A stretch of 24,000 nt of DNA from Bacteroidota bacterium (lineage in GTDB: Bacteria; Bacteroidota; Bacteroidia; B-17B0; Aurantibacillaceae), in the NCBI GenBank assembly GCA_017303905.1, contig JAFLBH010000001.1:511809-535808 (forward strand), written 5' to 3'. The stretch's first letter is position 1; each line of letters starts with the position of its first letter. Shown in pieces: positions 291 through 22,596 of the stretch. The notes under the pieces were generated by a model that was not told the DNA's origin, made no database searches, and saw only the letters and a list, made by a program, of their open reading frames with translations. The position numbers and the translations under genes are program-made.

Positions 291-2417
291 TCAAACTACT
301 TTTACAGAAATGATGCTCACGTCATCAACCTGCTCATTTTTACCCTTCCATTCCTGTAAGAAATTATAAAGCAGTTCTTTTTGTTGTTGCAACATTAAAT
401 TACTGTTGTTAACGATGAATGATTTTAAGTTTTTCGACATTAATTTTTTACTGCCTTCGCCACCAAATTGATCGGCAAATCCATCTGTGCTTAACACTAT
501 TTGATCGCCGGATTCTAATTGGATTTCATGTAAAGTAAATGGTATTAATTCACCGTGATAATTTCCAACCGGCATCTTGTCACCGGCGTATTCTATTAAT
601 GAACCATTTCTAATTATCCAAAGTTTATTATTAGCACCTGCAAATTCGAGCGTGTTGTTTAATTTGTTCCAGGTGCAAATAGCCATATCCATTCCGTCAC
701 GCCTATCTGTCACGCCTTTTTGTTCGAGGGAAGAAATAATTTTTGTGCGCAGTTTATTTAATATTTCTGCGGGATTGAAAAATTTATTTTCTACAACCAA
801 TTCATTTAAAAAACTATTTCCGAGCATGCTCATAAATCCACCCGGTACGCCATGCCCCGTACAATCGGCTAAAGCAAAAACTGCGCGACTATTAACAGTA
901 TTGTAAGCCCAGTAAAAATCACCACTTACAATGTCTTTAGGTTGAAATAAAATAAAATATTCTTGCGATATTTTTTTCCAAACATCATCACCTGTTAATA
1001 CGGCCGCCTGAATTTTTTGCGCGTAATGAATACTGTCAAGAATCTCTTTTTGTTTTTCTTCAACGAGTAGTTTTTGATGTTCAATTTCTTCTTTTTGTAA
1101 CTCTACTTGTTCCTTCTGGCTATTAATAATGATGTTTGCTTTTTGGGTTTTTTTGAAATTGCGAAAAGCTACAAAAGCAAAAATTACTACCGCAAATAAT
1201 CCCACTGTGCCAATGATTAAAACTTTTGTTTTGGCTTCATTTTCTTTTTCTTGCGCGGAAATTTCTAACGATTGATTTTGTATTTGCAGATCTTTTTTCT
1301 CTGTTTCGTATTTGGTGTTTAGGTTTTTGATAAGCTCAATGTTTTCAAGCGACAATAGAGAATCCTTCATGTTAGAAAAGTCATCCATGAACAAAAATCC
1401 TTTTCCTTTATCACCATAGGCTAAATGGTACTCACCAATTGTTTGTAAAAAAGGAACCTTATATTCGGGAAGGACATGAACCTCGCCAATAGCTTGTGCA
1501 GAATCTAAATATTTTGTTACTAAATGAGGCTTCGGAACAAACCTTAAATATACGTTCGCAGCATTTAAATATCCGCCGTATAAGGTGGCGGGATTATTCA
1601 AGGCTTTAGATAACTCAATCGTTTTTTTACAATAATATATCGCAGAGTCGGGTTGATTTAAATCCATGAATGTTAATCCCAGGTTTTGATAAACACCGGC
1701 TACACCATTTAAATTATTACTTGTTTGAAACTCTTTAAGGGCTAATCGATAATACTCCGCGCACTTAAGAGCATTGTTTTTGTAGTTTTGAATTAGCCCG
1801 AGATTTTGATAAACATAAGCGAGACTTCCGGGTATATATTCTTTAATTAGCAAATTATACGACTCCATTAAATACTTTTCTGCACTTATATAATCTTTTT
1901 GGTTAATATAAATTACAGCAATATTGTTTTTTAAGTCAGCAACATTCAGGGGTTTTTTTGACGCTTCAAAAAGCGTAATAGCGCTAATGTTTTCCTTAAT
2001 TGCGCTTTCATAATCTCCTTCGTTTTCATATACGAGGCCTAAGTTTTGATGCGAATAAGCTGCCAGAAGACTATAATTAATTTTTTTAGAAAACTCAATC
2101 GCTTTAAAATAGAAATATTTAGAGGAATCTTGATTACCAACGGTATAATAATAAATTCCTAATTTGAAATAGCCAACGCCCTCGTGTTTAATCGAGCCGG
2201 ATTTTTTACCTAGCTCAATTATTTTATAACCATATTCTTTGTTCTTTTCAGGAACACTCCCTGCCCAAAGAGCAGCTACCATGTTGTAATAGTTAGCTTT
2301 AGTTGTATCGTTTGCACTTTTACTTAGAGTAAGTAAACTATCAATAACTCGCATATTTTGTGCAAAGCATGCAAGAGAAACAAAAATGCCAAAAAGTAAG
2401 AATTTAAATTTACGCAT
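291..2417 (-). CDS. Membrane-anchored TPR-repeat sensor with a C-terminal PP2C-type (SpoIIE/RsbU-like) serine phosphatase domain
   Basis: 708 aa ORF with an ATG start. It has an N-terminal signal/TM segment and multiple TPR-like repeats (YQNLGL.. recurring). A coiled coil is followed by a TM helix (VLIIGTVGLFAVVIFAFVAF). The SpoIIE-type domain carries SGDFYW, DCTGHGVPGGFMSM, DGMDM, STDGFADQFGG and DDVSII. Confidence 0.85.
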   Translation of the reverse strand: MRKFKFLLFGIFVSLACFAQNMRVIDSLLTLSKSANDTTKANYYNMVAALWAGSVPEKNKEYGYKIIELGKKSGSIKHEGVGYFKLGIYYYTVGNQDSSKYFYFKAIEFSKKINYSLLAAYSHQNLGLVYENEGDYESAIKENISAITLFEASKKPLNVADLKNNIAVIYINQKDYISAEKYLMESYNLLIKEYIPGSLAYVYQNLGLIQNYKNNALKCAEYYRLALKEFQTSNNLNGVAGVYQNLGLTFMDLNQPDSAIYYCKKTIELSKALNNPATLYGGYLNAANVYLRFVPKPHLVTKYLDSAQAIGEVHVLPEYKVPFLQTIGEYHLAYGDKGKGFLFMDDFSNMKDSLLSLENIELIKNLNTKYETEKKDLQIQNQSLEISAQEKENEAKTKVLIIGTVGLFAVVIFAFVAFRNFKKTQKANIIINSQKEQVELQKEEIEHQKLLVEEKQKEILDSIHYAQKIQAAVLTGDDVWKKISQEYFILFQPKDIVSGDFYWAYNTVNSRAVFALADCTGHGVPGGFMSMLGNSFLNELVVENKFFNPAEILNKLRTKIISSLEQKGVTDRRDGMDMAICTWNKLNNTLEFAGANNKLWIIRNGSLIEYAGDKMPVGNYHGELIPFTLHEIQLESGDQIVLSTDGFADQFGGEGSKKLMSKNLKSFIVNNSNLMLQQQKELLYNFLQEWKGKNEQVDDVSIISVKVV

Positions 2418-3796
2418 TACCCAAACAATTGGTTAAACACCTCTTCTATTTTATTGACGGTTATAATTTCAATAGAATAGCTTTTAGGGTCTAATCCTTT
2501 TTTGTTAAAGGTAGAAATAAAAATCTTTTCAAATCCAAGTTTTTGCGCTTCACTTATTCTCTGTTCAATTCGGTTTACCGGTCTGATTTCTCCGGTTAAT
2601 CCAACCTCGGCGGCAAAACACACATTTTGAGGTATAGGTAAATCTTCGTTGCTTGATAAAATGCCACACACCAAAGCCAAATCAATTCCCGGGTCTTCCA
2701 CTTTGATACCGCCGGCAATATTTATAAAAACATCTTTTACGGCCAATCTGAATCCGCATCGCTTTTCCAAAACAGCTAATAACATGGATAATCTTCTTAA
2801 ATCAAATCCGGTAGAAGAACGTTGAGGTACGCTATAGGCGGCGCTGCTTACTAAGGCCTGTGTTTCAATTAACATCGGTCGATTTCCTTCCATGGTGGCC
2901 GCAATGGCTACACCACTGGTGGCATATTCACGTTGCGTGATTAAAATTTCGCTGGGATTCGTTACTTCTCGCAATCCGTCGCCGCTCATTTCGTAAATCC
3001 CCATTTCATTAGTGCTTCCAAAACGGTTTTTAGTGGCGCGCAATAATCTGTAAATATGATTCGTGTCGCCCTCAAATTGTAAAACCGTATCCACCATGTG
3101 CTCCAAAACTTTTGGTCCGGCTAAACTTCCCTCTTTGGTAATATGACCAATCATAAAAACCGGCGTATTGGTTTCTTTAGCGAAACGTAAAAATTCGGCA
3201 GCGCATTCACGAACCTGACTAACGCTTCCCGGACTGCTCTCGATATAGGACGTATGAATCGTTTGTATAGAATCGATAACTACCAGCTGAGGTTGTAACA
3301 CTTCTATTTGCTGAAAAATATTTTGTGTATTTGTTTCTTGCAAAATGAAACACGAATTCGTGGTAACACCAATCCTTTCGGCACGCATTTTTATTTGCTG
3401 TTCGCTTTCTTCTCCGCTAACGTACAACACTTTTAAATTTTTCAATCGTAAAGCCAATTGCAACATTAAAGTTGATTTACCAATGCCCGGCTCACCGCCA
3501 AATAAAACGATACTTCCGGGCACAATCCCGCCTCCCAACACGCGGGCTAATTCTTTTCCGGGAACGGGAATGCGCGGATAGTCCTGCAAGCCGATTTCTT
3601 GTAAAAGCTCGGGTTTGTTACTTTGTTTAGGGTCTTTGTTCCCCGAAAACAATTGCAGGCGATCGTTTTTAGTTTCCTTTCTTACAACCTCTTCCACCAA
3701 TGTATTCCACTCATTACAACTCGTACATTTTCCAACCCATTTATTGTGTTGTGTTCCACAGCTCTGACAGAAATATGTTGTTTTAGTTTTGGCCAT
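2417..3796 (-). CDS. radA: DNA repair protein RadA/Sms
   Basis: 459 aa. It has an N-terminal C4 zinc finger (CQSCGTQHNKWVGKCTSCNEW), a Walker A motif (GGEPGIGKST), the RadA-specific KNRFG motif and a Lon-protease-like C-terminal domain. The stop codon overlaps the downstream phosphatase ATG by 1 nt (TAATG). Confidence 0.95.
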   Translation of the reverse strand: MAKTKTTYFCQSCGTQHNKWVGKCTSCNEWNTLVEEVVRKETKNDRLQLFSGNKDPKQSNKPELLQEIGLQDYPRIPVPGKELARVLGGGIVPGSIVLFGGEPGIGKSTLMLQLALRLKNLKVLYVSGEESEQQIKMRAERIGVTTNSCFILQETNTQNIFQQIEVLQPQLVVIDSIQTIHTSYIESSPGSVSQVRECAAEFLRFAKETNTPVFMIGHITKEGSLAGPKVLEHMVDTVLQFEGDTNHIYRLLRATKNRFGSTNEMGIYEMSGDGLREVTNPSEILITQREYATSGVAIAATMEGNRPMLIETQALVSSAAYSVPQRSSTGFDLRRLSMLLAVLEKRCGFRLAVKDVFINIAGGIKVEDPGIDLALVCGILSSNEDLPIPQNVCFAAEVGLTGEIRPVNRIEQRISEAQKLGFEKIFISTFNKKGLDPKSYSIEIITVNKIEEVFNQLFG

Positions 3797-3803
3797 TATC
3801 TTG

Positions 3804-3883
3804 TTAAATGTTTTTTATTATATGTTTAGTGTTATTCATTCAAGTTAACATTTAACATAAAAAGCATATTGAAAAATGTTAAA
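3804..3883. repeat. Direct repeat DR1 (80 bp; perfect 74 bp core 3810-3883), immediately upstream of the radA start
   Basis: It matches 4312-4391 at 79/80 positions, with the single mismatch at 3809 vs 4317. It contains a 9 bp inverted repeat, TTAACATTT (3845-3853) / AAATGTTAA (3874-3882). Confidence 0.95.
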
Positions 3884-3907
3884 GTTTCCCGTTTACTAAC
3901 GGCATTA

Positions 3908-4276
3908 TTACTTGTTTCTTCTGGCTGTTTCAATACTTTTTACGAATATTGAAATGAGCTCTTTACATTCTTTATTTGCCCTTTCAACTTTATCAAGCTC
4001 TTTTATCAAAGGTTTTCTTTTGACAATTTCCAAGGCAATGCTTGTTTCTTTCAATTCTTTTAGACAAATTTTCATTTTATGAATGAAATCGTTTCTGGAT
4101 TCTGCTACTTGAGCCTCACCGTAATTAAAAGCGGGAGAGGTGCCCGAACGAAGCAGCTGTCCCGCTATGTGATTTCCGGCCTTAGTATTCGGCAACATTT
4201 CTACAATTTCCATATTTAATAAAGAAAAACTGATTAAGCGTTCTTCCAAATCAAACTTTTTTCCAACCTCTGCCAT
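3908..4276 (-). CDS. Four-helix-bundle protein (23S rRNA intervening-sequence protein family, TIGR02436-like; distant relative of DGR Avd)
   Basis: 122 aa with an ATG start. Typical family features are present: LEERLISFS...., AGNHIAGQLLRSGTSPAFNYGEAQVAESRNDFIHKMKICLKELKET..W/AL. The size and all-helical pattern fit the family. Confidence 0.8.
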   Translation of the reverse strand: MAEVGKKFDLEERLISFSLLNMEIVEMLPNTKAGNHIAGQLLRSGTSPAFNYGEAQVAESRNDFIHKMKICLKELKETSIALEIVKRKPLIKELDKVERANKECKELISIFVKSIETARRNK

Positions 4277-4311
4277 AGCTCCTTTTATTTAGGATAAAAC
4301 AAGGGAATCCA

Positions 4312-4391
4312 TTAAACGTTTTTTATTATATGTTTAGTGTTATTCATTCAAGTTAACATTTAACATAAAAAGCATATTGAAAAATGTTAAA
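4312..4391. repeat. Direct repeat DR2 (second copy of the 80 bp radA-upstream sequence), upstream of the four-helix-bundle gene
   Basis: The perfect 74 bp core at 4318-4391 equals 3810-3883. The same internal 9 bp inverted repeat is present. Confidence 0.95.
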
Positions 4392-4550
4392 TCTTTGGTT
4401 TATCAATACAAACACAAAGTTAGGCTCTACAGTAGCAAGTGCTTGCCATAAATTGTAGCAATTCAAAAAATCACCTTTTTTGGCACGATATCTGCTGTGT
4501 TTGCGGGGCTTTAACCCTTATAATATTAGAAATTCTGTATCTTTATTAAA

Positions 4551-5387
4551 ATGTTAAATTCACATATGCGACGGATTAAATGGACATCGGCAATAATTTT
4601 AAGCTTGGTACTTGCCATAACATTTTACAGTTGTAATAAACAAGATACCATTACGCCTCTTAGCGGGACTCCTGTTACAGGAAACGGTTCTGTTGATATT
4701 AGCTGGACTTTTGATAAGGCTCACAGCAATGTAAACTGGGAATCGAAATACCTCGATTGGTCGAGCGGAATGTTAACCGGACGCTTCAACAATTTTAATT
4801 TTTCTCCGAAGTTTGTCTTCAACGAAACTGATTTGAGCCTTTGCAAAATAAATGCCTGGGTACAATTGTCGTCTATAGATTCAGGAGAGCCCGGACGCGA
4901 CGGCGTTGGAAAATGCATTCGCAGTTACATGGGCGTTACTTATTTAGATAGCTTAAAAACAATTACAGATCCCGTTAGTGATACAGCTTGGTTTAAAAGC
5001 ACCAGTGTTGTAAAATCAGGTACGGGTTATGTTGTTTTTGGCAACATGCGTTTTAACCGTTACCGCGCACCAAGCGGAAATCCGGATGGCACGCACATTT
5101 TTAAACCGGCCGTTTTGTATTTAGTATATAATGGCACAGAAGATTTTGATACTAACGGTGATGCCATTACCGACAGATACCGCGCTTCTTTTTCAGCGAA
5201 GTTAAAATTCAAGCGTTCCGATTTTATGGACACCAATTCCACCGTGCAGTGGGTGCCTGTTCCTGCCTTGGCCGACCAAACAGGAAACATGAGCGCAGCG
5301 AATAATAAAACCTACGGTGTTTGGACAACCAACATCGCCGATGAAATGAGTTTTACGTTTAACGCACAGTTTTATAAAAATCACTAA
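4551..5387 (+). CDS. YceI-like (polyisoprenoid-binding family) lipoprotein
   Basis: 278 aa with a lipoprotein signal (..LVLAITFYSC); ATG 4566 (MRRIKW..) is an alternative start. YceI-like motifs are present: W-FDKAHSNVNW..., L-GRFN-F-F, and I-A-V-LSSIDSGEPGRD. Confidence 0.55.
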   Translation: MLNSHMRRIKWTSAIILSLVLAITFYSCNKQDTITPLSGTPVTGNGSVDISWTFDKAHSNVNWESKYLDWSSGMLTGRFNNFNFSPKFVFNETDLSLCKINAWVQLSSIDSGEPGRDGVGKCIRSYMGVTYLDSLKTITDPVSDTAWFKSTSVVKSGTGYVVFGNMRFNRYRAPSGNPDGTHIFKPAVLYLVYNGTEDFDTNGDAITDRYRASFSAKLKFKRSDFMDTNSTVQWVPVPALADQTGNMSAANNKTYGVWTTNIADEMSFTFNAQFYKNH

Positions 5388-5785: not shown

Positions 5786-7450
5786 ATGAAAACACGTTTA
5801 CAAAAAACTTTAACCGCTTTATTGTTGTTGTTTGTTATAAAAGCAACACATGCGCAAACAAATACCTGGCAATGGGCTAAAAGTGCAGGTGCTACCGGTA
5901 ACGAAGCTACCACCGGAACTGTTGTTGATGCGAGCGGCAATGTATATGCGGTGGGATGGTACACCAGTGCCACAATTACCTTTGGAACCATAACACTTAC
6001 CAATCCGGGTAATTTTACAGCGGATATGTTTATTGCTAAATACGATGCTTCAGGAAACGTGTTATGGGCAAAAACGTTTGGTGGAGTAGACGGAGAAATT
6101 GGAAACGGAATTGCGATTGATGCAAGCGGAAATATTTATGTTACCGGATGGTTCACTAGTTCTGCGATGGCCATGGACACGTATACCATTACAAATGCCG
6201 GCACCGCAAGCAGCGATATTTTTGTTGCTAAACTTGACGCGAGCGGAAGTACGGTATGGGCAAGAAGTGGTGGCGGAACCGGCGGCGATAGAGGACTGGG
6301 CGTAGCGGTTGATGCAAGCAACAATGTGTTTGTGAGTGGAGGTTTTAATAGTAACAGCATCAGCTTTGGCAGCGGAGGACTCACCAACGCCGGAACAAAT
6401 ACCAGCGATGTGTTTATCGTAAAATATAATGCAAGCGGAAATGTGCAATGGGCACAAAGTGCCGGTGGTTCAGCGAACGATTTATCCAATGGTGTTGCCA
6501 CAGATAGCTTAGGCAATGCTTATCTCACAGGTTATTTCTCGAGTTCAAATATTAATTTTGGAACCGGCATTATTAATAATAACACCGTTAATACACAAGA
6601 TATTTTTGTGACTAAATATAACGGTTCGGGGACCGCGGTTTGGGCACAGCGCACGGGTGGAAGTATGGATGATTACGCAAACGCCATTGCGATCAGAGGA
6701 AATCGTTTATACATTACCGGTGGATTTAACAGCGCATCCATTGCGGTTGGAACAACAACCTTAAACAACAATAGCGCGGGAACTTCTGATTTTATTTTGG
6801 CGAAATATGATTTAAACGGCAATGCACAGTGGGCCGTCGAAGCAGGCGATGTAGATTCTGAGGCGGGGAATGGCATAGCAACGGATGTGGCAGGAAATGT
6901 TTTTGTCAGCGGGTATTATATCAGTGCAACTATTATTTTTGGAACAAACACACTTACCAACGCTGCTGCGGGTTATCGCGATTTATTTGTGGCGGCGTAT
7001 ACAAGTAATGGTTTTGCCGCATGGGCGAATACAGCTACCGCCGCTACTTATGATGAAACCGCCAATGCCGTAGCGGTTACAGCAAGCGGAAGTGACGTGT
7101 ATGTAGGTGGTTCGTTTAATAGTGCTATTGCTTCTTTTGGAGCGCATAACGTTTATAAAGGTTGTGGCGATGATGTGTTTGTTGCTAAACTTACAGGCAC
7201 TACGGTTGGAATAAAAGAAAATAAACTGCACGATCAATTAGCATTGTATCCAAATCCAACAAGCGGAAAATTTACCGTAGAAGGTGAAGGACAAATTATT
7301 TTTTATAATGTATTAGGCGAAGAAGTGCTTAATGAAAAAGTAAATAAACATCAAACCTTCGATTTTTCATCGCAAGCTAAAGGCGTTTACGTTTATAAAA
7401 TAATCTCTACCGATAAAAAAGTGTATAGCGGAAGAGTAGTGGTGGAGTAA
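5786..7450 (+). CDS. Secreted SBBP-repeat beta-propeller protein (7 repeats) with a T9SS C-terminal sorting domain
   Basis: 554 aa with a signal peptide (..VIKATHAQ). Seven tandem repeats of roughly 60 aa follow the form D(A/S)SGN(V/I)Y(V)TG-F-S....FG...LTN.G...D-F(V/I)AKYDASGN..WA...GG. The C-terminus LALYPNPTSGKFTVE...GVYVYKI...SGRVVVE is a type-A T9SS CTD. Confidence 0.85.
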   Translation: MKTRLQKTLTALLLLFVIKATHAQTNTWQWAKSAGATGNEATTGTVVDASGNVYAVGWYTSATITFGTITLTNPGNFTADMFIAKYDASGNVLWAKTFGGVDGEIGNGIAIDASGNIYVTGWFTSSAMAMDTYTITNAGTASSDIFVAKLDASGSTVWARSGGGTGGDRGLGVAVDASNNVFVSGGFNSNSISFGSGGLTNAGTNTSDVFIVKYNASGNVQWAQSAGGSANDLSNGVATDSLGNAYLTGYFSSSNINFGTGIINNNTVNTQDIFVTKYNGSGTAVWAQRTGGSMDDYANAIAIRGNRLYITGGFNSASIAVGTTTLNNNSAGTSDFILAKYDLNGNAQWAVEAGDVDSEAGNGIATDVAGNVFVSGYYISATIIFGTNTLTNAAAGYRDLFVAAYTSNGFAAWANTATAATYDETANAVAVTASGSDVYVGGSFNSAIASFGAHNVYKGCGDDVFVAKLTGTTVGIKENKLHDQLALYPNPTSGKFTVEGEGQIIFYNVLGEEVLNEKVNKHQTFDFSSQAKGVYVYKIISTDKKVYSGRVVVE

Positions 7451-7458
7451 GTAAATTT

Positions 7459-7634
7459 AACCCCTCTGTCCTGCGGACATCTCCCCTTAGCAGGGGAGAA
7501 TTTTGTCATGGTCGATTCAAACTTTTTAGCAAAGATTTTCTTAATTGATAATATAAGCTCCATCAAAAACGGGCAGCTCCTCCCCCTGCTAAGGGGGAGT
7601 GCGCTTACGCGAAAGCGTAAGGGCGAGGGGGTTT
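7459..7634 (+). repeat. Nested-hairpin MITE-like element, copy 1 (hairpin order D-C-centre-B-A on the + strand)
   Basis: Its reverse complement aligns along its full length to 13793-13958. Termini are AACCCCTC ... GAGGGGGTTT. Hairpins are GTCC-TGC-GGAC, CTCCCCT-TAGC-AGGGGAG, CTCCCCC-TGCTAA-GGGGGAG and the variant CTTACGC-GAAA-GCGTAAG (7604-7621). A solo terminus remnant, GGGAGGGGGTTT, lies at 7650-7661. Confidence 0.85.
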
Positions 7635-7764
7635 ATCACTTACACAAAAGGGAGGGGGTTTGCAACTCAATACCCCAAGGGCTTTTACCTTACACTTTCA
7701 TATGTCCCTAAAAATTTGTTATTTCAAACTGTAACCAAAAAACTAATTTGCGTTATTGCCCCGG

Positions 7765-9020: not shown

Positions 9021-9055
9021 ATGTAGACAACTGTCCGTTGTACTAATGTCTACAT
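9021..9055. promoter_or_regulatory. Putative C-box operator: 35 bp imperfect palindrome with perfect 9 bp outer arms
   Basis: The outer arms are ATGTAGACA (9021-9029) and TGTCTACAT (9047-9055). Partial inner symmetry is present (GACA-AC-TGTC at 9026-9035; 12 of 17 symmetric positions pair). It lies directly upstream of the HTH controller gene, and its size matches known C-protein operators. Confidence 0.5.
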
Positions 9056-9072
9056 TATTAGAAATTCACTTA

Positions 9073-9276
9073 ATGGATATTAGAAAAAAATTCGGAAAGC
9101 AAATTAAAAAATTGCGCATAGAGAAAGGAATGTCTCAGGAGGCATTAGCCTTTGAGGCGGAACTTGATAGAACATATATTCCGAGTATTGAAAAGGGTGA
9201 AAGGAATGTTTCATTAGTTGTAATTGAAAAGCTTGGAAAGGCCCTTAATGTTTCACCAAAAGTGTTTTTTGATTAA
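9073..9276 (+). CDS. XRE-family HTH transcriptional regulator, probable restriction-modification controller (C) protein
   Basis: MDIRKKFGKQIKKLRIEKGMSQEALAFEAELDRTYIPSIEKGERNVSLVVIEKLGKAL is a typical C-protein/Cro-like HTH. The track start at 9046 lies inside the operator arm, so ATG 9073 is preferred. Its stop is 2 nt before the HNH gene start. Confidence 0.8.
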   Translation: MDIRKKFGKQIKKLRIEKGMSQEALAFEAELDRTYIPSIEKGERNVSLVVIEKLGKALNVSPKVFFD

Positions 9277-9278
9277 CT

Positions 9279-9935
9279 ATGAGTAGCGCTAAAGAAAAAC
9301 TATTAAAGAAATTATTAGACAATGTAGGAAAGACTCTTACTAGAGAGCTTTTAAGTAAAACAGCAAATGTACACGACTGGCAAAGATCATTAAGAACTCT
9401 AAGGCAAGAAGGATGGCAGATTGTTTCGAGCAAGGAAGGCTATACACTCGTTTCTGAATTAAAGAATGAAACAAAGAAAAGCAGAATCACAATAAACAAT
9501 AAATTGCGCTATTCTATTTTACAAAGAGATAACTCAACTTGTCAAAGATGCGGAAAGACAGTACAAGACGGTATAAAATTGGAAGTTGATCATAAAATTC
9601 CCGTAGAATGGAACGGAACAAACGACGTTGAGAACTTGTGGACTCTTTGTAATGAGTGTAATGGAGGTAAAAAGCATTTTTTCTCTGATTTTGATGATAA
9701 AATAATGAGGGAGGTGATGAATGAAAAGAGCGGATATCAGCGTTTAGTAAAATTGTTTAAACTTAGTCCGAATACCGTTATAGAGCCAATAAAATTAGAG
9801 GCCATAAGCGGCATTAGGGACTGGACTAGAACTATTAGATTAATTAGATCAAAAGAAAAACTTAATCTTGTTTGGATAGATAAATCAACGGAGTTCCCGC
9901 AAGGAGGATACAAATTAATCAGACAAAAGAATTAA
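9279..9935 (+). CDS. HNH-family endonuclease, putative type II restriction endonuclease of the island
   Basis: 218 aa. The central HNH/zinc motif is CQRCGKTVQDGIKLEVDHKIPVEWNGTNDVENLWTLCNECNGGKKH. It appears coupled to the C gene and is convergent with the C5-MTase. Two similar wHTH-like modules flank the nuclease core. Confidence 0.65.
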   Translation: MSSAKEKLLKKLLDNVGKTLTRELLSKTANVHDWQRSLRTLRQEGWQIVSSKEGYTLVSELKNETKKSRITINNKLRYSILQRDNSTCQRCGKTVQDGIKLEVDHKIPVEWNGTNDVENLWTLCNECNGGKKHFFSDFDDKIMREVMNEKSGYQRLVKLFKLSPNTVIEPIKLEAISGIRDWTRTIRLIRSKEKLNLVWIDKSTEFPQGGYKLIRQKN

Positions 9936-11206
9936 ATATGCTTAAAAAGCGTTTCAATTATTAATTTCCCGGTTGCTTTAATTGCAGGCACCGCAACTGA
10001 ATTTCCAAATTGTTTATAGGCAGATGCATCAGCCACAGGAATTAAATAATTATCAGGAAAGCCTTGTAGCCTTGCCCATTCTCTAGGGGTCATTTTACGA
10101 ATTCCCTCCCTGTTTACTTCTCCCTTAATTTTTGTTTCAGGCGTAAAATCTTTTAAGCGAGTATCAATAATTAAATTTCTTTCTCGTCCCATTCCGCCGC
10201 AAACAACAGCGTTGGCGATCCCTTTGTCGGGAATAATTTCGTAACCAAAACCATTGCCTTTATTGGCATGCCTTTCTTTATGGGCTTTTAAGGTTTTTAA
10301 ATATTGAGTAGACAAATAATATCTTGCTGAAACAGGTTTTTTCTCCTTGATATCAGAAAACTTAACTTTCTTATCGGTTGGTTTAGGGTAATTAAAACTA
10401 GTAACTTTTAAATCTTTTCTAAAACCTACAATAAAAATTCTTTCTCTGTTTTGTGGTACACCAAAATCTTTTGCATTAATGATTTGAGGCTCGGGCACAA
10501 AATATCCTAAATCATTTCTTAATACATTTAATATGGTTTCTAATGTTTTTCCTTTGTCGTGATTTCTTAATCCTTTTACGTTTTCAAGAAAAATAGCTTT
10601 TGGTTTTTTTCTTCTAATAATTTCAGCTACATCAAAAAACAAAGTACCACGTGTATCCTCAAAACCGCCTCTTTTTCCTGCTATAGAAAATGCTTGGCAA
10701 GGAAAACCCGCACACAACACATCGAATCCATCAGGTATAAATTTCTTTGTTTCTTCCTTGGTAATATCACCAAACGGAACTTCACCAAAATTAGCTTTAT
10801 ATGTTTTTTGCGCCTCTTTATCCCACTCACTTGTAAAAACACATTTGCCTCCGAGACTTTGCATTGCTATACGAAAACCGCCAACCCCGGCAAACAAATC
10901 AATAAACTTAAACGTATAATTTTCAGGTGTTGGAAATGGAACGTTTTCTACTTCAAAAAGTAATTGTTGTAAGGCGCTTTCAGCAACCTCCGAATATTTT
11001 ATATTAGGAAACTTATAAAGCACCATTTCCTTTATAAATTTTTCCGCTTCTTTTTTGTAATGTTTTTTTACGCCGTTATGATAGTTGTGAAGATAGTGTG
11101 TAACAACTGCCTTTTTGTTGCTTTCAGGTTCTACCAGTTTAATTCTAAACTTTTTCCCTTCAAAATCATCGATTGTTATACTTTCTTTCAGCTTCATGAA
11201 TAGCAT
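9932..11206 (-). CDS. dcm: DNA (cytosine-5)-methyltransferase, Dcm/M.HhaI-like
   Basis: All the conserved motifs are present: I FIDLFAGVGGF, IV GFPCQAFSIAGKRGG, FEDTRGTLFF, VI ENVKGL, VIII QNRERIFIVGF, TRD segment KGNGFGY and X QFGNSVAVP. GGKCVFTSEWDKEAQKTYKANF closely matches E. coli Dcm. An alternative ATG is at 11197. An N-terminal extension of about 95 aa has unknown function. Confidence 0.95.
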   Translation of the reverse strand: MLFMKLKESITIDDFEGKKFRIKLVEPESNKKAVVTHYLHNYHNGVKKHYKKEAEKFIKEMVLYKFPNIKYSEVAESALQQLLFEVENVPFPTPENYTFKFIDLFAGVGGFRIAMQSLGGKCVFTSEWDKEAQKTYKANFGEVPFGDITKEETKKFIPDGFDVLCAGFPCQAFSIAGKRGGFEDTRGTLFFDVAEIIRRKKPKAIFLENVKGLRNHDKGKTLETILNVLRNDLGYFVPEPQIINAKDFGVPQNRERIFIVGFRKDLKVTSFNYPKPTDKKVKFSDIKEKKPVSARYYLSTQYLKTLKAHKERHANKGNGFGYEIIPDKGIANAVVCGGMGRERNLIIDTRLKDFTPETKIKGEVNREGIRKMTPREWARLQGFPDNYLIPVADASAYKQFGNSVAVPAIKATGKLIIETLFKHI

Positions 11207-11600
11207 TAACTATTTTGGTTATACAATATTGCAAATTTTCCTCTATTTCTTTTCCCCAAAAACGCAAAACTTGCCAATTTTCTTTTAACAAAACCTTATT
11301 AACTTCTTTGTCTCTGGCAATATTTCTTTCAATTTTCTTATGCCAAAAGTCTTGATTGCTTTTATGGTCATGTTTTCGCTTTTTCCAATCCTTGCCGTGC
11401 CAGAATTCACTGTCAACAAAAACGGCAATTTTGAGTTTTTTAAAAGTTAAATCCGGCTTACCGAAAACACTTTTATCATTTTTTCTATATCGATATCCTT
11501 TCACCCAAAGGGTTTTTGAAAGCAAGACTTCAATCTTAGAGCCTTTGCTTTTTACTGCCTGCATGTTTTTACGTCGTTGTTCTTTGGTGAGCTTATCCAC
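11166..11600 (-). CDS. vsr: Very-short-patch repair endonuclease Vsr
   Basis: LTKEQRRKNMQAVKSKGSKIEVLLSKTLWVKGYRYRKNDKSVFGKPDLTFKKLKIAVFVDSEFWHG matches the Vsr N-terminus and catalytic core. No ATG precedes the conserved N-terminus. The track uses TTG 11639; I prefer GTG 11600 (VDKLTKEQ). The 3' end overlaps the dcm start by 32-41 nt. Confidence 0.8.
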   Translation of the reverse strand: MDKLTKEQRRKNMQAVKSKGSKIEVLLSKTLWVKGYRYRKNDKSVFGKPDLTFKKLKIAVFVDSEFWHGKDWKKRKHDHKSNQDFWHKKIERNIARDKEVNKVLLKENWQVLRFWGKEIEENLQYCITKIVNAIHEAERKYNNR

Positions 11601-11712
11601 AAAGCGAAAATAGAACAAAGTGTAAAAACAGGGAAACAAAATTATATTAAAAGAATAACAATGCTTGCTATAAAATGTAGCATTTTTTTAAAGTAAGAAA
11701 AAAAGAAAGTAA

Positions 11713-12834: not shown

Positions 12835-12883
12835 AGAGCAAATATACACTTCCGAGAGGAGAATAGAAAGATTATTTGGGGAT

Positions 12884-13087
12884 AAACCCCCTCCCGCTTC
12901 GCGGACTCCCTCCCGATTATCCCGATAGCTATCGGGACGGGACAAGCTCTTAGCAGGGGGAGAGGCTGTTCGTTTTTGATTCAGCTTTAATTTTCAATAA
13001 GGGAAAATCGTAGCTAAAAATTTTGAATTTACCATGAAAGAATTCTCCCCTGCTAAGGGGAGATGTCGCGTAGCGACAGAGGGGTTT
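12884..13087 (-). repeat. Nested-hairpin MITE-like element, copy 2 (with a ~38 nt structured expansion in hairpin B)
   Basis: The termini and architecture match copy 4. The expansion at 12911-12948 contains TCCCG/CGGGA around a perfect 16 nt palindrome, CCCGATAGCTATCGGG (12921-12936). Hairpin D is GTCGC-GTA-GCGAC (13065-13077). Confidence 0.85.
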
Positions 13088-13137
13088 TGTTTTAAAAAGT
13101 TGTTTGAAGTTTGAGACTCTTCGTTTTATATTGTGGT

Positions 13138-13331
13138 AAAACCCCCTCCCGCTTCGCGGACTCCCCCTTAGCAGGGGGAGGGGCTTTCCGTTTTTGATGG
13201 AGCTTGAATTGTAAAAAAAGGAAAATCGTTGCTAAAAAATTTTTAATCTACCACGAAAGAATTCTCCCCTGCGAAGGGGAGATGTCCGAACTTGCCAGCC
13301 GTGGCGCAGCAGGCTGGGGACAGAGGGGTTT
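13138..13331 (-). repeat. Nested-hairpin MITE-like element, copy 3 (with a ~30 nt structured expansion in hairpin D)
   Basis: The outer D stem GTCC (13284-13287) / GGAC (13318-13321) is retained. The inserted inner stem is CCAGCC (13295-13300) / GGCTGG (13312-13317). The rest is collinear with copy 4. Confidence 0.85.
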
Positions 13332-13342
13332 ATGCCACTCTT

Positions 13343-13708
13343 TCATTTATTTTGAAAATAGGATTTAATTAAATCTAACACACCCTCAGTGTTTTTAAAA
13401 ACATGCTCGTTTTCAATTCTAACGGTTCTTATACCATACTTTAATAATAAATCATCTCGCTGCTTGTCATGTTCAAATCCAACAACAGTGAAGTGATGTT
13501 CTCCGTCTAACTCAACAGCTAATTTTTCTTCTGCACAATAAAAATCAAGAATGAAATTTTTGAAACTGTGTTGTCGTCTAAATTTTCTTCCTTCCAGCTG
13601 AGAATTTTTTAAATATTTCCAGAGTATTTTCTCAGGAACAGTTGTGTTATCTCTTAAATCTTTTCTGTATTCTTTTAAATAAGACCTGTTATTATTTCTT
13701 ATCTGCAT
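13343..13708 (-). CDS. DUF559 endonuclease-domain protein (Vsr-like / PD-(D/E)XK fold)
   Basis: 121 aa with an ATG start. EKILWKYLKNSQLEGRKFRRQHSFKNFILDFYCAEEKLAVELDGEHH...RDDLLLKYGIRTVRIENEHV is the typical DUF559 pattern. Repeat copies 3 and 4 flank it. Confidence 0.85.
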   Translation of the reverse strand: MQIRNNNRSYLKEYRKDLRDNTTVPEKILWKYLKNSQLEGRKFRRQHSFKNFILDFYCAEEKLAVELDGEHHFTVVGFEHDKQRDDLLLKYGIRTVRIENEHVFKNTEGVLDLIKSYFQNK

Positions 13709-13792
13709 ACAGCAAAATTATAAGGAGTTGTTTTTGATCCTTGCTATAATTTGTAGTTTTTTTGGTTAAGACCTTTTATTATATTTAAGAAC

Positions 13793-13958
13793 AAACCCCC
13801 TCCCGCTTCGCGGACTCCCCCTTAGCAGGGGGAGGGGCTGTTCGTTTATAAATTGGCTTGAATTGTAAAAAAAAGGAAAATCGTTGCTAAAAATTTTGAA
13901 TCTATCACGAAAGAATTCTCCCCTGCCAAGGGGAGATGTCCGCAGGACAGAGGGGTTT
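13793..13958 (-). repeat. Nested-hairpin MITE-like element, copy 4 (minimal/consensus form)
   Basis: The termini are AAACCCCCTC ... GAGGGGTTT. Hairpin A is 13803-13813 (CCGC-TTC-GCGG). Hairpin B is 13815-13834 (CTCCCCC-TTAGCA-GGGGGAG). Hairpin C is 13918-13935 (CTCCCCT-GCCA-AGGGGAG). Hairpin D is 13938-13948 (GTCC-GCA-GGAC). Confidence 0.85.
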
Positions 13959-14007
13959 GTGACAGAGACGCTAATTATTTTTCTAAATCAAAAAGTTTCA
14001 AGGAAGT

Positions 14008-17584: not shown

Positions 17585-18123
17585 GCGAATTTAAATTCTT
17601 TATAGGGTAACCAGCTTTTTCCTGTGTGTTTTAAGAGGAAGAAAGAGTTGCATAGAAAGTTAGCTTCAAAGGATTTGTTGCGATATTCTTCCATCATCAG
17701 GTAGAAAAATTCTTTTTTCAAATCACGGAAAGCGATGGTAACGTGTGGATGATATTTCCGCATGTCATCCGCCTGATTGAAAATGTTGAGATTTGACTTT
17801 ACTTGTTTAACCACTTCTTTTTGTAGTTTGTTTAAATTTTCATTCTCAATAACATCCACAAAAACTACTTTGGGTTCAAAACAATTATAGTTCTTCAAAT
17901 TAATTTCAAAAGCAGGAATTTCTGTTTTGAAATTGGAAAGTGTATTCAAAAGAATTTCTTCTTTTTCTGTTTTCCATTCAAAGGGCATATGCAATGTGAT
18001 GTGCGAAGGGGAACGCAAGGCACTTTTGTTGTTGTATTTTTCCGACACTTCTTTTTTAATGTTTTCTATTTGTGAAAACACCGGTTCAGGAGGAATGATG
18101 GCTATGAAATATTTTTGCAGCAT
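17581..18123 (-). CDS. 2H phosphoesterase family protein (2'-5' RNA ligase LigT/ThpR-like)
   Basis: 180 aa with two H-x-T/S-x motifs (SHITLHMPF and HPHVTIAFRD) at the expected spacing. The ATG overlaps the upstream phosphatase stop by 1 nt. Confidence 0.75.
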   Translation of the reverse strand: MLQKYFIAIIPPEPVFSQIENIKKEVSEKYNNKSALRSPSHITLHMPFEWKTEKEEILLNTLSNFKTEIPAFEINLKNYNCFEPKVVFVDVIENENLNKLQKEVVKQVKSNLNIFNQADDMRKYHPHVTIAFRDLKKEFFYLMMEEYRNKSFEANFLCNSFFLLKHTGKSWLPYKEFKFA

Positions 18124-20108
18124 TAAACACGAACACCAATCACCAGGATATCATCAATTTGTTCAAGATTTCCCTTCCAGTTTTCGTAAGCGGTTTTAAT
18201 GGCTTCGTGTTGTTGGGCTGGAGATAAATCGTGAATGGAGATGAGTAATTTTTTAAGCGCGTTGTACTTGAATTTTTTTCCTTTTGGTCTGCCAAACTGA
18301 TCGGCAAAACCATCAGAATATAAATAAATATAATCGCTTTTTTGTAATTGGATTTTGTGATTGGTATAATTATCGGCTACGCCATCGATGTTACTGCCAA
18401 TTGGAAACTTATCTGCCTTTATCTCTAATAAACTATCTTCAAAAAAGATTTCTTTATCGGATGTGATTTTATGTGATGAAGAGAAATTCTTACGCACAAT
18501 CCACAAATTATTGAAAGCGCCCGCGAATTGTAATTCTTTTGTCTGCGCGTTATAAGTACATAAAGACAAATCCATGCCATCTTTTACTGCATTGTCTTCT
18601 TGATTTTGTCGGAGTGTATCTGTTACACCCATATCCAAATGTTGTAAAATGTCGGAAGGTTTGGTTAAATCTTTTTCGTTAACAGCGCGATTTAATAAAC
18701 TCATGCCCACCACACTCATCATGGCACCCGGTACGCCGTGTCCGGTACAATCAACAGCGGCAAACATGACTAAATTATTTTTTTCTTCTACCCAATAGAA
18801 GTCACCGCTTACTACATCTTTAGGCTTGTAAAATATAAACGCGTCGGGCAACAAGCGTTTTACCATTTTATCGGGGGGTAAAATAGAAAGCTGAATACGT
18901 TTAGCGTAATTAATGCTATCGGTTATTTCTTTTTTCTGATGGGTAATTTCGTCGTTTTGTTTTTGTAATAAGGCGTTTGCCTGTTTTTTGTTTTTATTTT
19001 GTTTAAACAAGACACCTGCAATTATCAAAAATACGATAACAGAAATGATGGAAATAAAAGTTAGTGTGCGTGATTGTTTCACTTTTAAAGTGCTTATTTC
19101 TTGTTCTGCAGAAAGACGTTTTAACTCATCTTCTTTTTTACCGGTTTCATACTTCACTTCCATTTCGCTGAGTTTTTCTACTGTGCGTAGTTTGTTTACA
19201 CTGTCTTTTAGGAAAAAGGCGGTGTTATAAAACTCAGCTGACTTAATATATTTTTTGAGTTCGTAATAAACATCACCAAGGGCTTTATTAATTGACATTG
19301 CTAATTCGACGTTGTCAGGATTAGCTTTATAAGCTAATTCAAAATATTTTAATGAAGTTTCCGCGTCTTTCATTTTGTAATAGAATGTGCCAATATTGTA
19401 AAGGGTTCCGGCATAACCTAAAAGATCCCCCCCGTTTTTATAATATTCTAAAACAATTGCCGAGTATTTTGCAACAGAATCTTTGTTACGCAATTCGGAA
19501 TAGGCAGAAAGCAGGGTTCCATAAATGTTACCCATAAACGATAAATTTTTCGCTTGTTCTTCCGACGCATTATTAATAACCAGGTTGCTATAGAAAATTG
19601 CAGAGTCATTCTGCTTAATTTTAGAATACATTATAGCAAGGTTGCTTTCTACTAAGCATTTTTTAACCTTGTTTTTTGTAAAAACGCTATAAGCTCTTGC
19701 CTCATGATAAGTTAATCTTGCGTTATCAAACCTCTCATTACTTACGTACAAATTGCCGATGGCATTTAAGCTTTCAATGATTTTCGAACTTTGATTTAAT
19801 TTTTTGGCTAAGCCTTTGTTTTCAATAAAACATTCCAAGGAACGATTTAGGTCACCAAGTATATATAGAGCCACCGCTTTTTTATGTCGACTAAGATAGG
19901 TAAGTGAGTCGTTTTTAATTTGAAGGGAGAGGGAAACAGCAGAATCGGCAAAGGTTTGGGACAATTGTGGGTCAGACCTTAAGACAGAGTCGGCTTTATT
20001 GTTTAGTTCAACGATTTTTTTTATATCCTGGGAGAACAAAACCCCCTGCAGAATTGTTATAAAGATGATGATGTAATATTTTGTAATTTTTGTCAAGGAA
20101 ATAAACAA
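18123..20108 (-). CDS. Membrane-anchored TPR-repeat sensor with a PP2C-type (SpoIIE/RsbU-like) phosphatase domain; paralog of 291..2417
   Basis: 661 aa with the same architecture: signal, TPR repeats, coiled coil, TM (LTFISIISVIVFLIIAGVLF) and SpoIIE domain (SGDFYW, DCTGHGVPGAMMS, DGMDLS, SDGFADQFG, DDILVIG). No ATG is available; the start is TTG 20108 or TTG 20096. Confidence 0.85.
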   Translation of the reverse strand: MFISLTKITKYYIIIFITILQGVLFSQDIKKIVELNNKADSVLRSDPQLSQTFADSAVSLSLQIKNDSLTYLSRHKKAVALYILGDLNRSLECFIENKGLAKKLNQSSKIIESLNAIGNLYVSNERFDNARLTYHEARAYSVFTKNKVKKCLVESNLAIMYSKIKQNDSAIFYSNLVINNASEEQAKNLSFMGNIYGTLLSAYSELRNKDSVAKYSAIVLEYYKNGGDLLGYAGTLYNIGTFYYKMKDAETSLKYFELAYKANPDNVELAMSINKALGDVYYELKKYIKSAEFYNTAFFLKDSVNKLRTVEKLSEMEVKYETGKKEDELKRLSAEQEISTLKVKQSRTLTFISIISVIVFLIIAGVLFKQNKNKKQANALLQKQNDEITHQKKEITDSINYAKRIQLSILPPDKMVKRLLPDAFIFYKPKDVVSGDFYWVEEKNNLVMFAAVDCTGHGVPGAMMSVVGMSLLNRAVNEKDLTKPSDILQHLDMGVTDTLRQNQEDNAVKDGMDLSLCTYNAQTKELQFAGAFNNLWIVRKNFSSSHKITSDKEIFFEDSLLEIKADKFPIGSNIDGVADNYTNHKIQLQKSDYIYLYSDGFADQFGRPKGKKFKYNALKKLLISIHDLSPAQQHEAIKTAYENWKGNLEQIDDILVIGVRV

Positions 20109-20744: not shown

Positions 20745-21912
20745 AATTTAAGACTACATCGGTTAATTCGCTCTCAAAATCGAAAAAGGTTTGCTTTAAA
20801 CTACTGTTACCGTTTGTGCCGTAATTAACAAAGAAAATAATGGTGTAGCCTCTCTCGGGGAAATAGAATGAGTTAGCGTTGTATCCTAAGTCGCGGCCGG
20901 TGTGACCAATTCCATAAGTAGCTTTATGGGTAAATTTCTTTACTGTACTTACACCACAGTAGTAATCATCGTCTTCCCGGTTAAACTCTGTCATTAAATC
21001 TAAAGAAGCTTGGGATAATAAAGTTTTCTTTGCGAATAACGCCTCCATAAATTTGAATAAATCAAATACGTTCGAATATATTCCGCCAAACCCATTTCCA
21101 CTTCCTGTTATGTAATTAGATACATTTACAATGGTTCCGTTACTGTGTAAATCAAAATAGCCTTGCGCCGCATCATTCGGAATTTGTTCTCGTCCCTGGT
21201 AATACGTGTTACTCATGCCCAAAGGTGTTAAAATCAAATCGCGCAATAACTTATCATGTCTTTCGCCTGTCGCTTTTTCAACACACATGGCGAGTAATAA
21301 TGTATTGGTGTTAGAATAATTGGCGGGATATTGTGAACTTAATTCTTCTCCGTCTTTGTTATATACAAACTGTAACAACTCCTCAAACGACCAGGTTTTG
21401 TTTGGATTGTTGATGATAGCCAGATAAAAAGCAGGGGCAGTAATCACATCAAAAATTCCGGTAGTATGATTCATCAATTGCTTAATGGTTTTTCCATCCG
21501 CATTTTTTATTTTCTTTAAAATATCATTATCAATGTATTTTGATATCGGATCGTTGATGTTGATTTTCCCTTGTTCCTGTAATTTCAAAACCATAGAACC
21601 CACTAACAGTTTGGTTATACTGGCTACTTTCGATATATGACAAGGAGAGAATTTGATTCCTTTGTCAATGTCGGCAAATCCGCTAGAACCAATCCATGTA
21701 CCATTGGAGTCGTTAATTAAAATAGAAATTCCCGGTAAACCTTTTTTACGGTAGCGTTCTAACAACTCAGTGTAAGCGGTATGCTTTGGATGTGTTGTAC
21801 TACTGTCGGCATAAACACAATCAATGGATTTAGTTGGGACAATTTCTTCCTTTTTACAATGAGAAAAGAAAACGATTACGATGAGAAAATATAATCTATT
21901 TAGCTGTTTCAT
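20743..21912 (-). CDS. Serine hydrolase, beta-lactamase (class C/PBP4-like) family lipoprotein
   Basis: The SxxK motif (VASITKLLVG) and YxN-like region are present. The track start is GTG 21924; ATG 21912 gives MKQLNRLYFLIVIVFFSHC, a lipoprotein signal. Confidence 0.8.
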   Translation of the reverse strand: MKQLNRLYFLIVIVFFSHCKKEEIVPTKSIDCVYADSSTTHPKHTAYTELLERYRKKGLPGISILINDSNGTWIGSSGFADIDKGIKFSPCHISKVASITKLLVGSMVLKLQEQGKININDPISKYIDNDILKKIKNADGKTIKQLMNHTTGIFDVITAPAFYLAIINNPNKTWSFEELLQFVYNKDGEELSSQYPANYSNTNTLLLAMCVEKATGERHDKLLRDLILTPLGMSNTYYQGREQIPNDAAQGYFDLHSNGTIVNVSNYITGSGNGFGGIYSNVFDLFKFMEALFAKKTLLSQASLDLMTEFNREDDDYYCGVSTVKKFTHKATYGIGHTGRDLGYNANSFYFPERGYTIIFFVNYGTNGNSSLKQTFFDFESELTDVVLN

Positions 21913-22531: not shown

Positions 22532-22596
22532 AAAACAAATGTAAGCATTGAGGATATCAAAATGATGATAATGCTCAGCTTTTCGTTTGACAAGGC

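Follow-up and report, generated by a model that had tools for sequence, protein, structure and literature searches.

Why should the same 80 nucleotides (nt) lie on both sides of one small gene, directly ahead of radA? The question is raised by a 24,000-nt stretch of DNA from a Bacteroidota bacterium of the Aurantibacillaceae (GenBank assembly GCA_017303905.1, contig JAFLBH010000001.1, positions 511,809-535,808), the whole of which is called the window here. Positions 3804-3883 (DR1) and 4312-4391 (DR2) of the window form an 80-nt direct repeat, 79/80 identical, with a perfect core of 74 nt and a distance of 508 nt from start to start, around a gene for a four-helix-bundle protein. An earlier interpretation made from these letters alone (the sequence-only reading) took the repeat for a duplicated radA upstream region, presumably promoter and 5' untranslated region, left behind as the footprint of an insertion. 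The comparisons reported here lead us to a different answer: the repeat is likely to be an arm module of an element of the intervening-sequence (IVS) type, built on a gene of Pfam family PF05635 and lodged in the radA leader, whose two copies were recently homogenised; it would not be an insertion footprint.

Repeat pair and bracketed gene

The dimensions of the repeat are as the sequence-only reading had given them, and a repeat search recovered the same length, identity, core and spacing. With up to three mismatches allowed, the 74-nt core occurs exactly twice in the 24-kilobase (kb) window, while shuffled sequences give an expectation of 0. The copies are separated by an insert of 428 nt (3884-4311), in which the sole open reading frame (ORF) is 3908-4276 on the minus strand, encoding 122 amino acids (aa). 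The protein matches PF05635, the 23S ribosomal RNA (rRNA) IVS protein family (E=4.6e-10, 40.1 bits versus a cut-off of 33.8), which bears out its earlier description as an IVS-protein/Avd-like four-helix bundle; the closest solved structure is PDB 2rld_A (E=3.6e-12), and at least 7996 homologues at E<=1e-5 were found among the 8000 candidates scored. DR1 ends 7 nt from the radA ATG (3796) and DR2 ends 35 nt from the ATG of the four-helix-bundle gene (4276). Each copy contains a 9-bp inverted repeat, TTAACATTT/AAATGTTAA (3845-3853/3874-3882 and 4353-4361/4382-4390), which forms a predicted hairpin; these distances and the inverted repeat likewise agree with the earlier account.

A protein identical to the RadA of the window is encoded on 21 metagenome contigs. 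Because eight independent contigs with such a RadA (L002-L007, L009 and L010) carry both copies of the repeat with junctions identical to those of the window, the repeat structure is real and is no assembly artefact; two further contigs, L001 and L008, break within the repeat, as expected of a near-perfect repeat. Between positions 3500 and 4800 no Rfam family, including those of rRNA, gave a match. No transposase or recombinase was seen in the 428-nt insert, in the window ORFs scanned against Pfam or in the annotations of L002-L011, and the same window ORFs contain no reverse transcriptase domain; two of them (21896-22600 and 22597-23337) are without a Pfam match.

The repeated unit is distinct from the radA promoter box

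Relatives of RadA were sampled from metagenomes and compared alongside the closest homologues of the four-helix-bundle protein. TAnnTTTG is the Bacteroidetes -7 promoter consensus. Six relatives that lack the gene (L101, L102, L104, L105, L106 and L113; RadA 84-86% identical) have a GCTACAAnnnnTAGCAA-N18-20-TAnnTTTG box, reading GCTACAA…TAGCAA-N18-20-TAnnTTTG, which stops about 20 nt short of the radA ATG, and their radA leaders contain nothing that resembles the 80-nt unit. The same promoter-like box is found in every carrier of the gene, where it lies upstream of the four-helix-bundle gene (in its GCTACAAnnnnTAGCAA form in L092, L095, L098, L181 and L184). The window version, TAACTTTG (Table 1), is the only TAnnTTTG near the locus; it is present in a single copy upstream of both repeats, 23 nt from DR2, and TAnnTTTG is absent from the 80-nt unit itself. 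Because the gene-less relatives are without the unit and yet have the promoter box close to radA, the unit is not host DNA. Since their leaders have the box only and carriers have it upstream of the gene, the gene and the unit together are an insertion into the radA leader. The duplicated sequence is not the radA promoter, and TAACTTTG would be the promoter shared by the four-helix-bundle gene and radA.

These observations bear directly on the proposal that a cassette inserted recently before radA and duplicated 80 nt of the host promoter and 5' untranslated region, either as a long target-site duplication or by copying the promoter. Such an event would fit the near-identity of the two copies, the existence of a strain with identical RadA that has one unit and no gene (L011), and the weak pair of sigma-70-like hexamers present in each copy. 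A sigma-70 scan found such pairs at about background frequency (6 versus 3.8 expected), and they were dropped as promoter evidence. To our knowledge, 80 nt is far longer than known target-site duplications. The proposal is at odds with the gene-less leaders and with the lack of a TAnnTTTG box in the unit, and also with three results described below, namely the homology of the unit to the arms of four-helix-bundle genes in other lineages, the same layout with diverged copies in L181 and L184, and the radA linkage of all fetched close homologues, whose identities fall in step with those of RadA. We regard it as highly improbable, and the earlier claim that the repeat is a copied radA upstream region falls with it.

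The unit as an arm module

The nature of the unit is best seen in the nearest relatives of the gene in other lineages. There the gene stands between two complementary arms: the left one, L (ATGAAAAACATATAACA…AAGT), is A-rich and runs up to the ATG, and the right one, R (ACACTTAAACATTTTTCAT…), is T-rich and comes after the stop codon. L013 and L015 show this plain L-ORF-R architecture, and L016 has two such elements in tandem (3946-5200, period 464 nt), an arrangement that produces an R·L junction like the window unit. In gene sense the window unit indeed has its R half first and then L, which is the junction expected of tandem or circularised elements. A profile of the unit searched with nhmmer finds homologues in L092, L095, L098, L181, L183 and L184 (E 1e-12 to 1e-20), matches its own reverse complement, and gives weaker matches (E 3e-5 to 0.7) right after the four-helix-bundle stop codon in L012-L014, L016, L017 and L020. 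DR1 has its homologues in the downstream units of L181 and L184 and, in L092, L183 and L098, in the single spacer that separates the gene from radA. On these homologies the 80-nt unit appears to be the flanking arm module carried by an IVS-type four-helix-bundle element, a result that overturns its earlier interpretation as an insertion footprint. As R and L are complementary, the module is quasi-palindromic, so that a direct repeat of the module is also an inverted repeat; RNAalifold applied to 11 unit copies predicts a conserved R-L helix.

The placement of the L arm differs in one respect, since in L013, L016, L181 and L184 it stops at or a few nt from the ATG, unlike the 35-nt leader of the window gene. 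This leader contains a Shine-Dalgarno-like AAGGAG, 5 nt before the ATG, that is without counterpart in the relatives; such a motif is unexpected in a Bacteroidota genome.

Arm modules also amplify on their own. Arrays of gene-less L-loop-R hairpin units of about 95-105 nt each are present in L017 (964-1111) and L020 (484-830), and similar arrays stand beside four-helix-bundle genes in L057 and L088, around 3435-4865.

The complementary arms raise the alternative that they are the terminal inverted repeats of a non-autonomous transposon resembling a miniature inverted-repeat transposable element (MITE), with the upstream unit as a second, gene-less copy. L and R do form inverted repeats of 35-40 nt, tandem gene-less units exist in L017 and L020, and elements occur in the leaders of many different host genes across phyla. 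Against a transposon of this kind, no target-site duplication was seen around the ends of canonical elements or of the window units, no transposase is encoded by the window ORFs scanned, and positions are stable within the clade; across about 1 Mb of clade sequence the unit profile matches at the radA locus only. The upstream unit, furthermore, is of the local downstream type and not an independent family member. We therefore consider a MITE-like origin quite unlikely and retain the arm-module interpretation.

Two other readings of the repeat were considered and rejected. The L arm contains a mini-ORF (ATGAATAACACTAAACATATAATAAAAAACATTTAA, MNNTKHIIKNI*, running ATG AAT AAC … AAC ATT TAA) whose end lies 7 nt from the radA ATG; it is found at 3804-3839 and 4312-4347 on the minus strand of the window and at L095:3622-3663, where it is in frame with radA and led the gene caller to lengthen radA to 473 aa. 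As a conserved leader peptide it was discarded, its start codon being absent in L181 and L098. The GTTAAAT at one end of the repeat resembles the GTTRRRY of integron attC sites; this interpretation was abandoned as well, with no integrase seen among the window ORFs scanned, one cassette present and the unit homologous to IVS-type arms.

Age of the arrangement at radA

All close homologues for which the genomic context was fetched (P0006-P0010 and P0012; 80-88% identical) lie immediately upstream of radA, in genomes with differing upstream neighbours and RadA proteins 82-94% identical to that of the window. The identities of the two proteins drop in step: 87.7, 83.6 and 79.5% for the four-helix-bundle protein versus 93.9, 88.5 and 81.8% for RadA. 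By comparison, radA is nearby in 0 of the 80 wider loci that are described in a later section.

Three carriers with RadA 82% (L181), 92% (L183) and 85% (L184) identical to that of the window help to date the repeat. L181 and L184 share the layout promoter, R-loop-L, ORF, R-loop-L, radA. Within each genome their upstream and downstream units are 65-66% identical, whereas between the two genomes the upstream units are 72% and the downstream units 88% alike; this divergence within genomes, set against the likeness across them, identifies the units as old, separately evolving modules. The R·L-gene-R·L arrangement is on this evidence old in the clade. The sequence-only reading had reasoned that a duplicated arrangement with diverged copies in all relatives would speak for an ancient fixed structure. 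Such a layout is present in L181 and L184, and as a variant in L095, which has L-R-L ahead of the ORF and L behind it, but not throughout, as L092, L183 and L098 have the downstream unit only.

In structure predictions the quasi-palindromic nature of the units lets the two of L181, and likewise those of L184, pair across the ORF (-53.6 and -51.4 kcal/mol, 64-75 pairs, z -9.2 and -7.4), and the minimum-energy folds of the whole transcripts contain 69-78 long-range pairs between units. The inner L-R stem alone reaches -27 to -31 kcal/mol (z about -6 to -6.7), like that of the canonical L013 and L015. In a neighbour-joining tree of RadA the carriers are patchy, with the window grouping first with L092, then L095, then the basal L098, and with many gene-less lineages in between; on this tree repeated loss within the clade is the most likely explanation.

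Homogenisation, decay and a single-unit allele

In the window species the two modules no longer show the divergence seen in L181 and L184. DR2 is 70-74% identical to the downstream type of these two genomes and 61% to their upstream type. This resemblance of DR2 to the downstream type shows that the upstream module has been overwritten from the radA-proximal one. The copies are identical at 75-76/80 positions in most strains and at 79/80 in the window. Alleles at positions 20, 21 and 40 are common to both window copies and absent from the copies of every other strain, and a fourth shared allele, at position 71, occurs elsewhere only in L011. L001 differs from the window at 5 positions over 639 nt, 4 of them within DR1, and encodes an identical protein. 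These data support ongoing homogenisation between the units, one of the two possibilities that the sequence-only reading had raised.

Could the near-identity instead have been produced by the assembly or its polishing, with two diverged copies made to look identical in the window? The lower figure of 75-76/80 in other strains and the tendency of repeats of such size to attract mis-mapped reads would be in line with this. The alleles shared by the window copies are, however, absent from other strains (except for position 71 in L011), so they are not the result of averaging, and the independent contig L008, which ends inside the repeat, agrees with the window at every position over 140 nt. Were the true figure 75-76/80, the repeat and its assignment to the downstream type would still hold. 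An artefact of this kind is, in our judgement, scarcely probable.

Homogenisation has been accompanied by a change in predicted structure. The sense-strand pairing between the window units amounts to -16.3 kcal/mol (z -1.8, 9 long-range pairs), and that of L002 is intermediate (-24.1, z -3.6). According to these models the arms are present in the window and their sense-strand pairing has decayed. On the antisense (plus) strand the pairing of the window units is stronger (-33.9 kcal/mol, z -5.1), and a single window unit behaves alike (z -2.6 antisense versus -0.7 sense); most mismatches in the sense pairing are C·A and turn into G·U when the opposite strand is read. The L005 version of the four-helix-bundle ORF (7330-7635) is annotated with 101 aa and differs from the window by a 1-nt indel, which suggests decay of the gene in some members of the population.

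Loss has gone further in L011, whose RadA is identical to that of the window. Both flanks are joined there through one 80-nt unit (L011:4269-4348) and the four-helix-bundle gene is missing. The sequence-only reading had expected relatives with an empty site holding a single copy, and a single-copy locus does exist. A naive empty site was also our initial interpretation of it, and was dropped given the gene-less leaders without a unit and the diverged copies of the relatives. Because the gene is ancestral to the species, we read L011 as a deletion, and the locus would most simply be the single-unit remnant of a deletion between the units.

A related possibility is a reversible cycle that needs no dedicated recombinase, in which recombination between the two units excises a 508-nt circle of the gene with one unit, and the circle re-enters any resident single unit by a single crossover. 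L011 would then be equally a landing pad and a remnant, and a recent re-integration would account for the near-identity of the window copies. The three states that such a cycle predicts all exist (unit-gene-unit in the window, a single unit in L011 and tandem elements in L016), the junction of a circularised L-ORF-R element reads R·L, which is the order of the window unit, and gene-less unit arrays are found beside four-helix-bundle genes in L017, L020, L057 and L088. Yet the unit is at no other place in the clade sequence searched, the gene diverges in step with radA, which suggests that it stays put, neither a circle junction nor a second integration site was observed, and homology of 80 nt recombines inefficiently. 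We think such a cycle unlikely and continue with deletion from an old arrangement of arm modules.

IVS architecture across the family

Is the radA element an isolated case? The question was addressed with 80 genome loci that encode relatives 55-79% identical to the window protein, from Bacteroidota, Ignavibacteria, Verrucomicrobiota, Planctomycetota, Desulfobacterota and others. For an inverted-repeat score, the 200 nt upstream were compared by strict local alignment with the reverse-complemented 200 nt downstream, and two controls were used: 2272 sliding placements, and the flanks of 243 other genes at the same loci. A score of at least 24 was reached at 61/72 loci (85%), compared with 2.0% of sliding placements and 4.9% of other-gene flanks; at a score of at least 30 the figures are 75%, 0.3% and 1.6%, respectively. 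The median shuffle z across the four-helix-bundle loci is 9.6. RNAduplex on 150-nt flanks was also tried as a test for the stem and set aside, as random flanks likewise gave about -56 kcal/mol and there was no discrimination.

Direct repeats of at least 25 nt bracket the gene at 16/70 loci versus 0.48% of control placements, and consist of heptamer-rich arm material, some of it in arrays of ~100-nt units. At 64/72 loci (89%) the downstream neighbour is co-oriented, with a median distance of about 105 nt. Genes of many kinds serve as host, among them gyrA/parC, pntB, gltX, obg, nuoD and those for aspartate carbamoyltransferase and serine dehydratase. Close relatives of the gene thus usually show the IVS architecture even outside rRNA, in mRNA leaders, and in the literature searched we found no description of PF05635 elements in such a location. 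The protein is conserved to an unusual degree: identity is 72-79% for the best matches named from other phyla, across genomes named as Bacteroidota, Ignavibacteria and Planctomycetes, and an alignment of 26 protein sequences has 51 invariant columns, including FNYGEAQVAES and DFIHKMK. Such conservation implies strong constraint, frequent horizontal transfer, or both.

Discussion

The events at the radA locus can be brought together as follows. The element would be lodged in the radA 5' leader, downstream of a single radA promoter, so that the four-helix-bundle gene and radA are probably co-transcribed from upstream. In relatives the two modules are predicted to pair into a long rod around the ORF, which, where intact, may be processed by RNase III by analogy with rRNA IVSs. 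In the window species gene conversion, a non-reciprocal recombination between the two modules, would have replaced the upstream module with a copy of the radA-proximal one, a change that would have created the direct identity of 79/80 and destroyed most of the sense-strand stem. Recombination or slippage between the repeats could then delete the gene together with one module and leave the other, as in L011.

Several points weigh against this model. The sense-strand hairpin and enclosing stem of the window are no better than those of shuffled sequences, and none of the 15 predicted R-L pairs (0/15) shows a compensatory change. The carriers are not monophyletic, so the gene may have been gained repeatedly at this site or passed between members of the clade, and the order of events rests on the RadA neighbour-joining tree and on short AT-rich sequences. 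L011 could in principle be a landing site instead of a deletion product, and mis-mapping of reads during polishing could explain some of the near-identity in the window. Finally, the search for further unit copies was confined to the 24-kb window and about 1 Mb of clade sequence.

Few unexplained small genes are commoner in Bacteroidota, Verrucomicrobiota, Planctomycetota and further phyla than those for four helix bundle proteins, and questions about the origin and mobility of the 23S rRNA IVSs, and about what their ORFs do, go back to the early 1990s. More speculatively, and on balance doubtfully, orphan PF05635 genes in general might be IVS-type selfish cassettes that are spread across phyla in 5' leaders, with arm modules that drive both excision at the RNA level and the gain, loss, amplification and homogenisation of DNA without a recombinase of the element itself. 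The cassette would in that case be cut from the host transcript, presumably by RNase III as in the rRNA systems. The wider pattern, with IVS-like arms around most close relatives of the gene in mRNA leaders across phyla, seems to us the more interesting outcome of this work.

The window offers a population-level case of such an element: occupied, truncated and single-unit forms are found in strains with identical RadA, together with signs of conversion between the arms. Gain and loss can thereby be tested by polymerase chain reaction or long reads, and RNA processing by end mapping. Should the cassette interpretation be true, the locus would be a natural system in which to watch cassette gain and loss among alleles within one species. 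The case also carries a warning, as long 'target duplications' around genes of this kind can be element arms in disguise.

Features of the locus and of the remaining window

The features of the radA locus are collected in Table 1. A terminator-like match in the spacer behind the four-helix-bundle gene is on the plus strand only.

Table 1. Annotated features at the radA locus, listed from the promoter side; coordinates are those of the window.
Feature	Position	Strand	Remarks
Palindromic box TTGCTACAATTTATGGCAA	4443..4461	-	Upstream part of the conserved promoter-like region; single copy
TAACTTTG, TAnnTTTG match	4415..4422	-	Putative shared promoter of the four-helix-bundle gene and radA; position conserved in the clade
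DR2, upstream R·L unit	4312..4391	-	R (T-rich) 4352-4391, L (A-rich) 4312-4351; copy of the downstream-type unit
Leader of the four-helix-bundle gene, 35 nt	4277..4311	-	AAGGAG 5 nt before the ATG; no counterpart in relatives
Four-helix-bundle gene, 122 aa, PF05635	3908..4276	-	Pfam and PDB 2rld_A matches
24-nt spacer after the stop codon	3884..3907	-	5-bp hairpin at 3889-3902
DR1, downstream R·L unit	3804..3883	-	R 3844-3883, L 3804-3843; L ends 7 nt before the radA ATG
radA, host gene with the element in its 5' leader	2417..3796	-	Zn-ribbon, AAA_25/KaiC-type ATPase and Lon_C/ChlI domains

Further along the window (12873-13960), another small orphan gene is bracketed by repeats. It is an ORF of 121 aa, 13343-13708 on the minus strand, with a match to DUF559/PF04480 (E=1.5e-28), and on its two sides are copies 2 and 3 of a GC-rich repeat, which measures about 150-190 nt and contains the palindromes CCCCCTTAGCAGGGGGAG and TCTCCCCTGCnAAGGGGAGA. 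The region of these copies is placed between a holB-like gene and dprA, where L007 has an unrelated spacer of 196 nt. A fourth copy (7474-7604, minus strand; 85% over 133 nt) is found between a Por_Secre_tail gene and an OmpA-family gene, and the repeat is at the equivalent place in L002, L005, L007, L010 and L011. With copies at several sites, this is a dispersed, MITE-like repeat, unlike the 80-nt unit.

An island resembling a restriction-modification system occupies 9046-11639, with a helix-turn-helix (HTH) protein (9046-9276), an HNH endonuclease (9279-9935), a C5 cytosine methylase (9932-11206) and Vsr (11166-11639). It is strain-variable, and L007 has Vsr, an HTH protein, a 450-aa methylase and a 350-aa protein of unknown type at the same site. 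The window also encodes two paralogous proteins with TPR and SpoIIE-phosphatase domains, 291-2417 (708 aa) and 18123-20108 (661 aa), both on the minus strand and 16 kb apart, whose residual similarity at the DNA level is seen as repeat D6 (72% over 64 nt).

Comparison with known systems

The radA locus may be compared with several known kinds of element. Like transposon target-site duplications, its direct repeats directly flank a small inserted gene. Unlike them, the repeat is carried by the element, is absent at naive sites and has a diverged form in relatives. MITEs share with it the inverted arms, while no target duplication is seen and the unit profile is confined, in the clade sequence, to radA. 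The protein belongs to the same superfamily, PF05635, as Avd of diversity-generating retroelements, yet its gene stands alone in the leader of a housekeeping gene, the window ORFs scanned include no reverse transcriptase, and the only repeats at the radA locus are the two 80-nt units.

The closest parallel is with the S23p-type IVSs of 23S rRNA, which have a terminal inverted-repeat stem cut by RNase III and heptameric repeats upstream of the ORF, and whose origin and mobility, like the role of their S23p ORFs, have been stated to be unclear (PMC4990558). The radA element resembles the S23p-type IVSs of Coxiella burnetii and Leptospira in its PF05635 four-helix-bundle ORF of about 120 aa, in its size class of about 430-600 nt, in complementary terminal arms, which in relatives are predicted to enclose the ORF in a long stem, in short repeat units of the arm that precedes the ORF, and in its sporadic occurrence among relatives, inside a probable host transcript and co-oriented with it. 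That the window insert has the 428 nt of the C. burnetii IVS (PMC4990558 and references therein) is a coincidence. The enclosing stem is predicted to be strong in L181 and L184, inverted repeats surround the gene at 85% of the 72 wider loci, and the stem has z -1.8 on the sense strand of the window. The element differs in being situated in the radA 5' leader and not in helix 25 or 45 of 23S rRNA, in having a composite R·L quasi-palindrome on both sides, so that its arms read as direct repeats, and in a window sense-strand stem that is predicted to have largely decayed; processing by RNase III would be by analogy. Its location outside 23S rRNA keeps it from strict membership of the rRNA IVS class, of which we regard it as a variant.

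In its population dynamics the locus is reminiscent of the solo long terminal repeats of retroelements. It differs from these in that its repeats are 80-nt quasi-palindromes without retroelement machinery, which were homogenised later and not created identical by replication. As with solo long terminal repeats, however, recombination between the direct repeats would reduce a unit-gene-unit structure to one unit, the copies undergo concerted evolution, and occupied and single-unit forms coexist within one species, the former in the window and L002 and the latter in L011.

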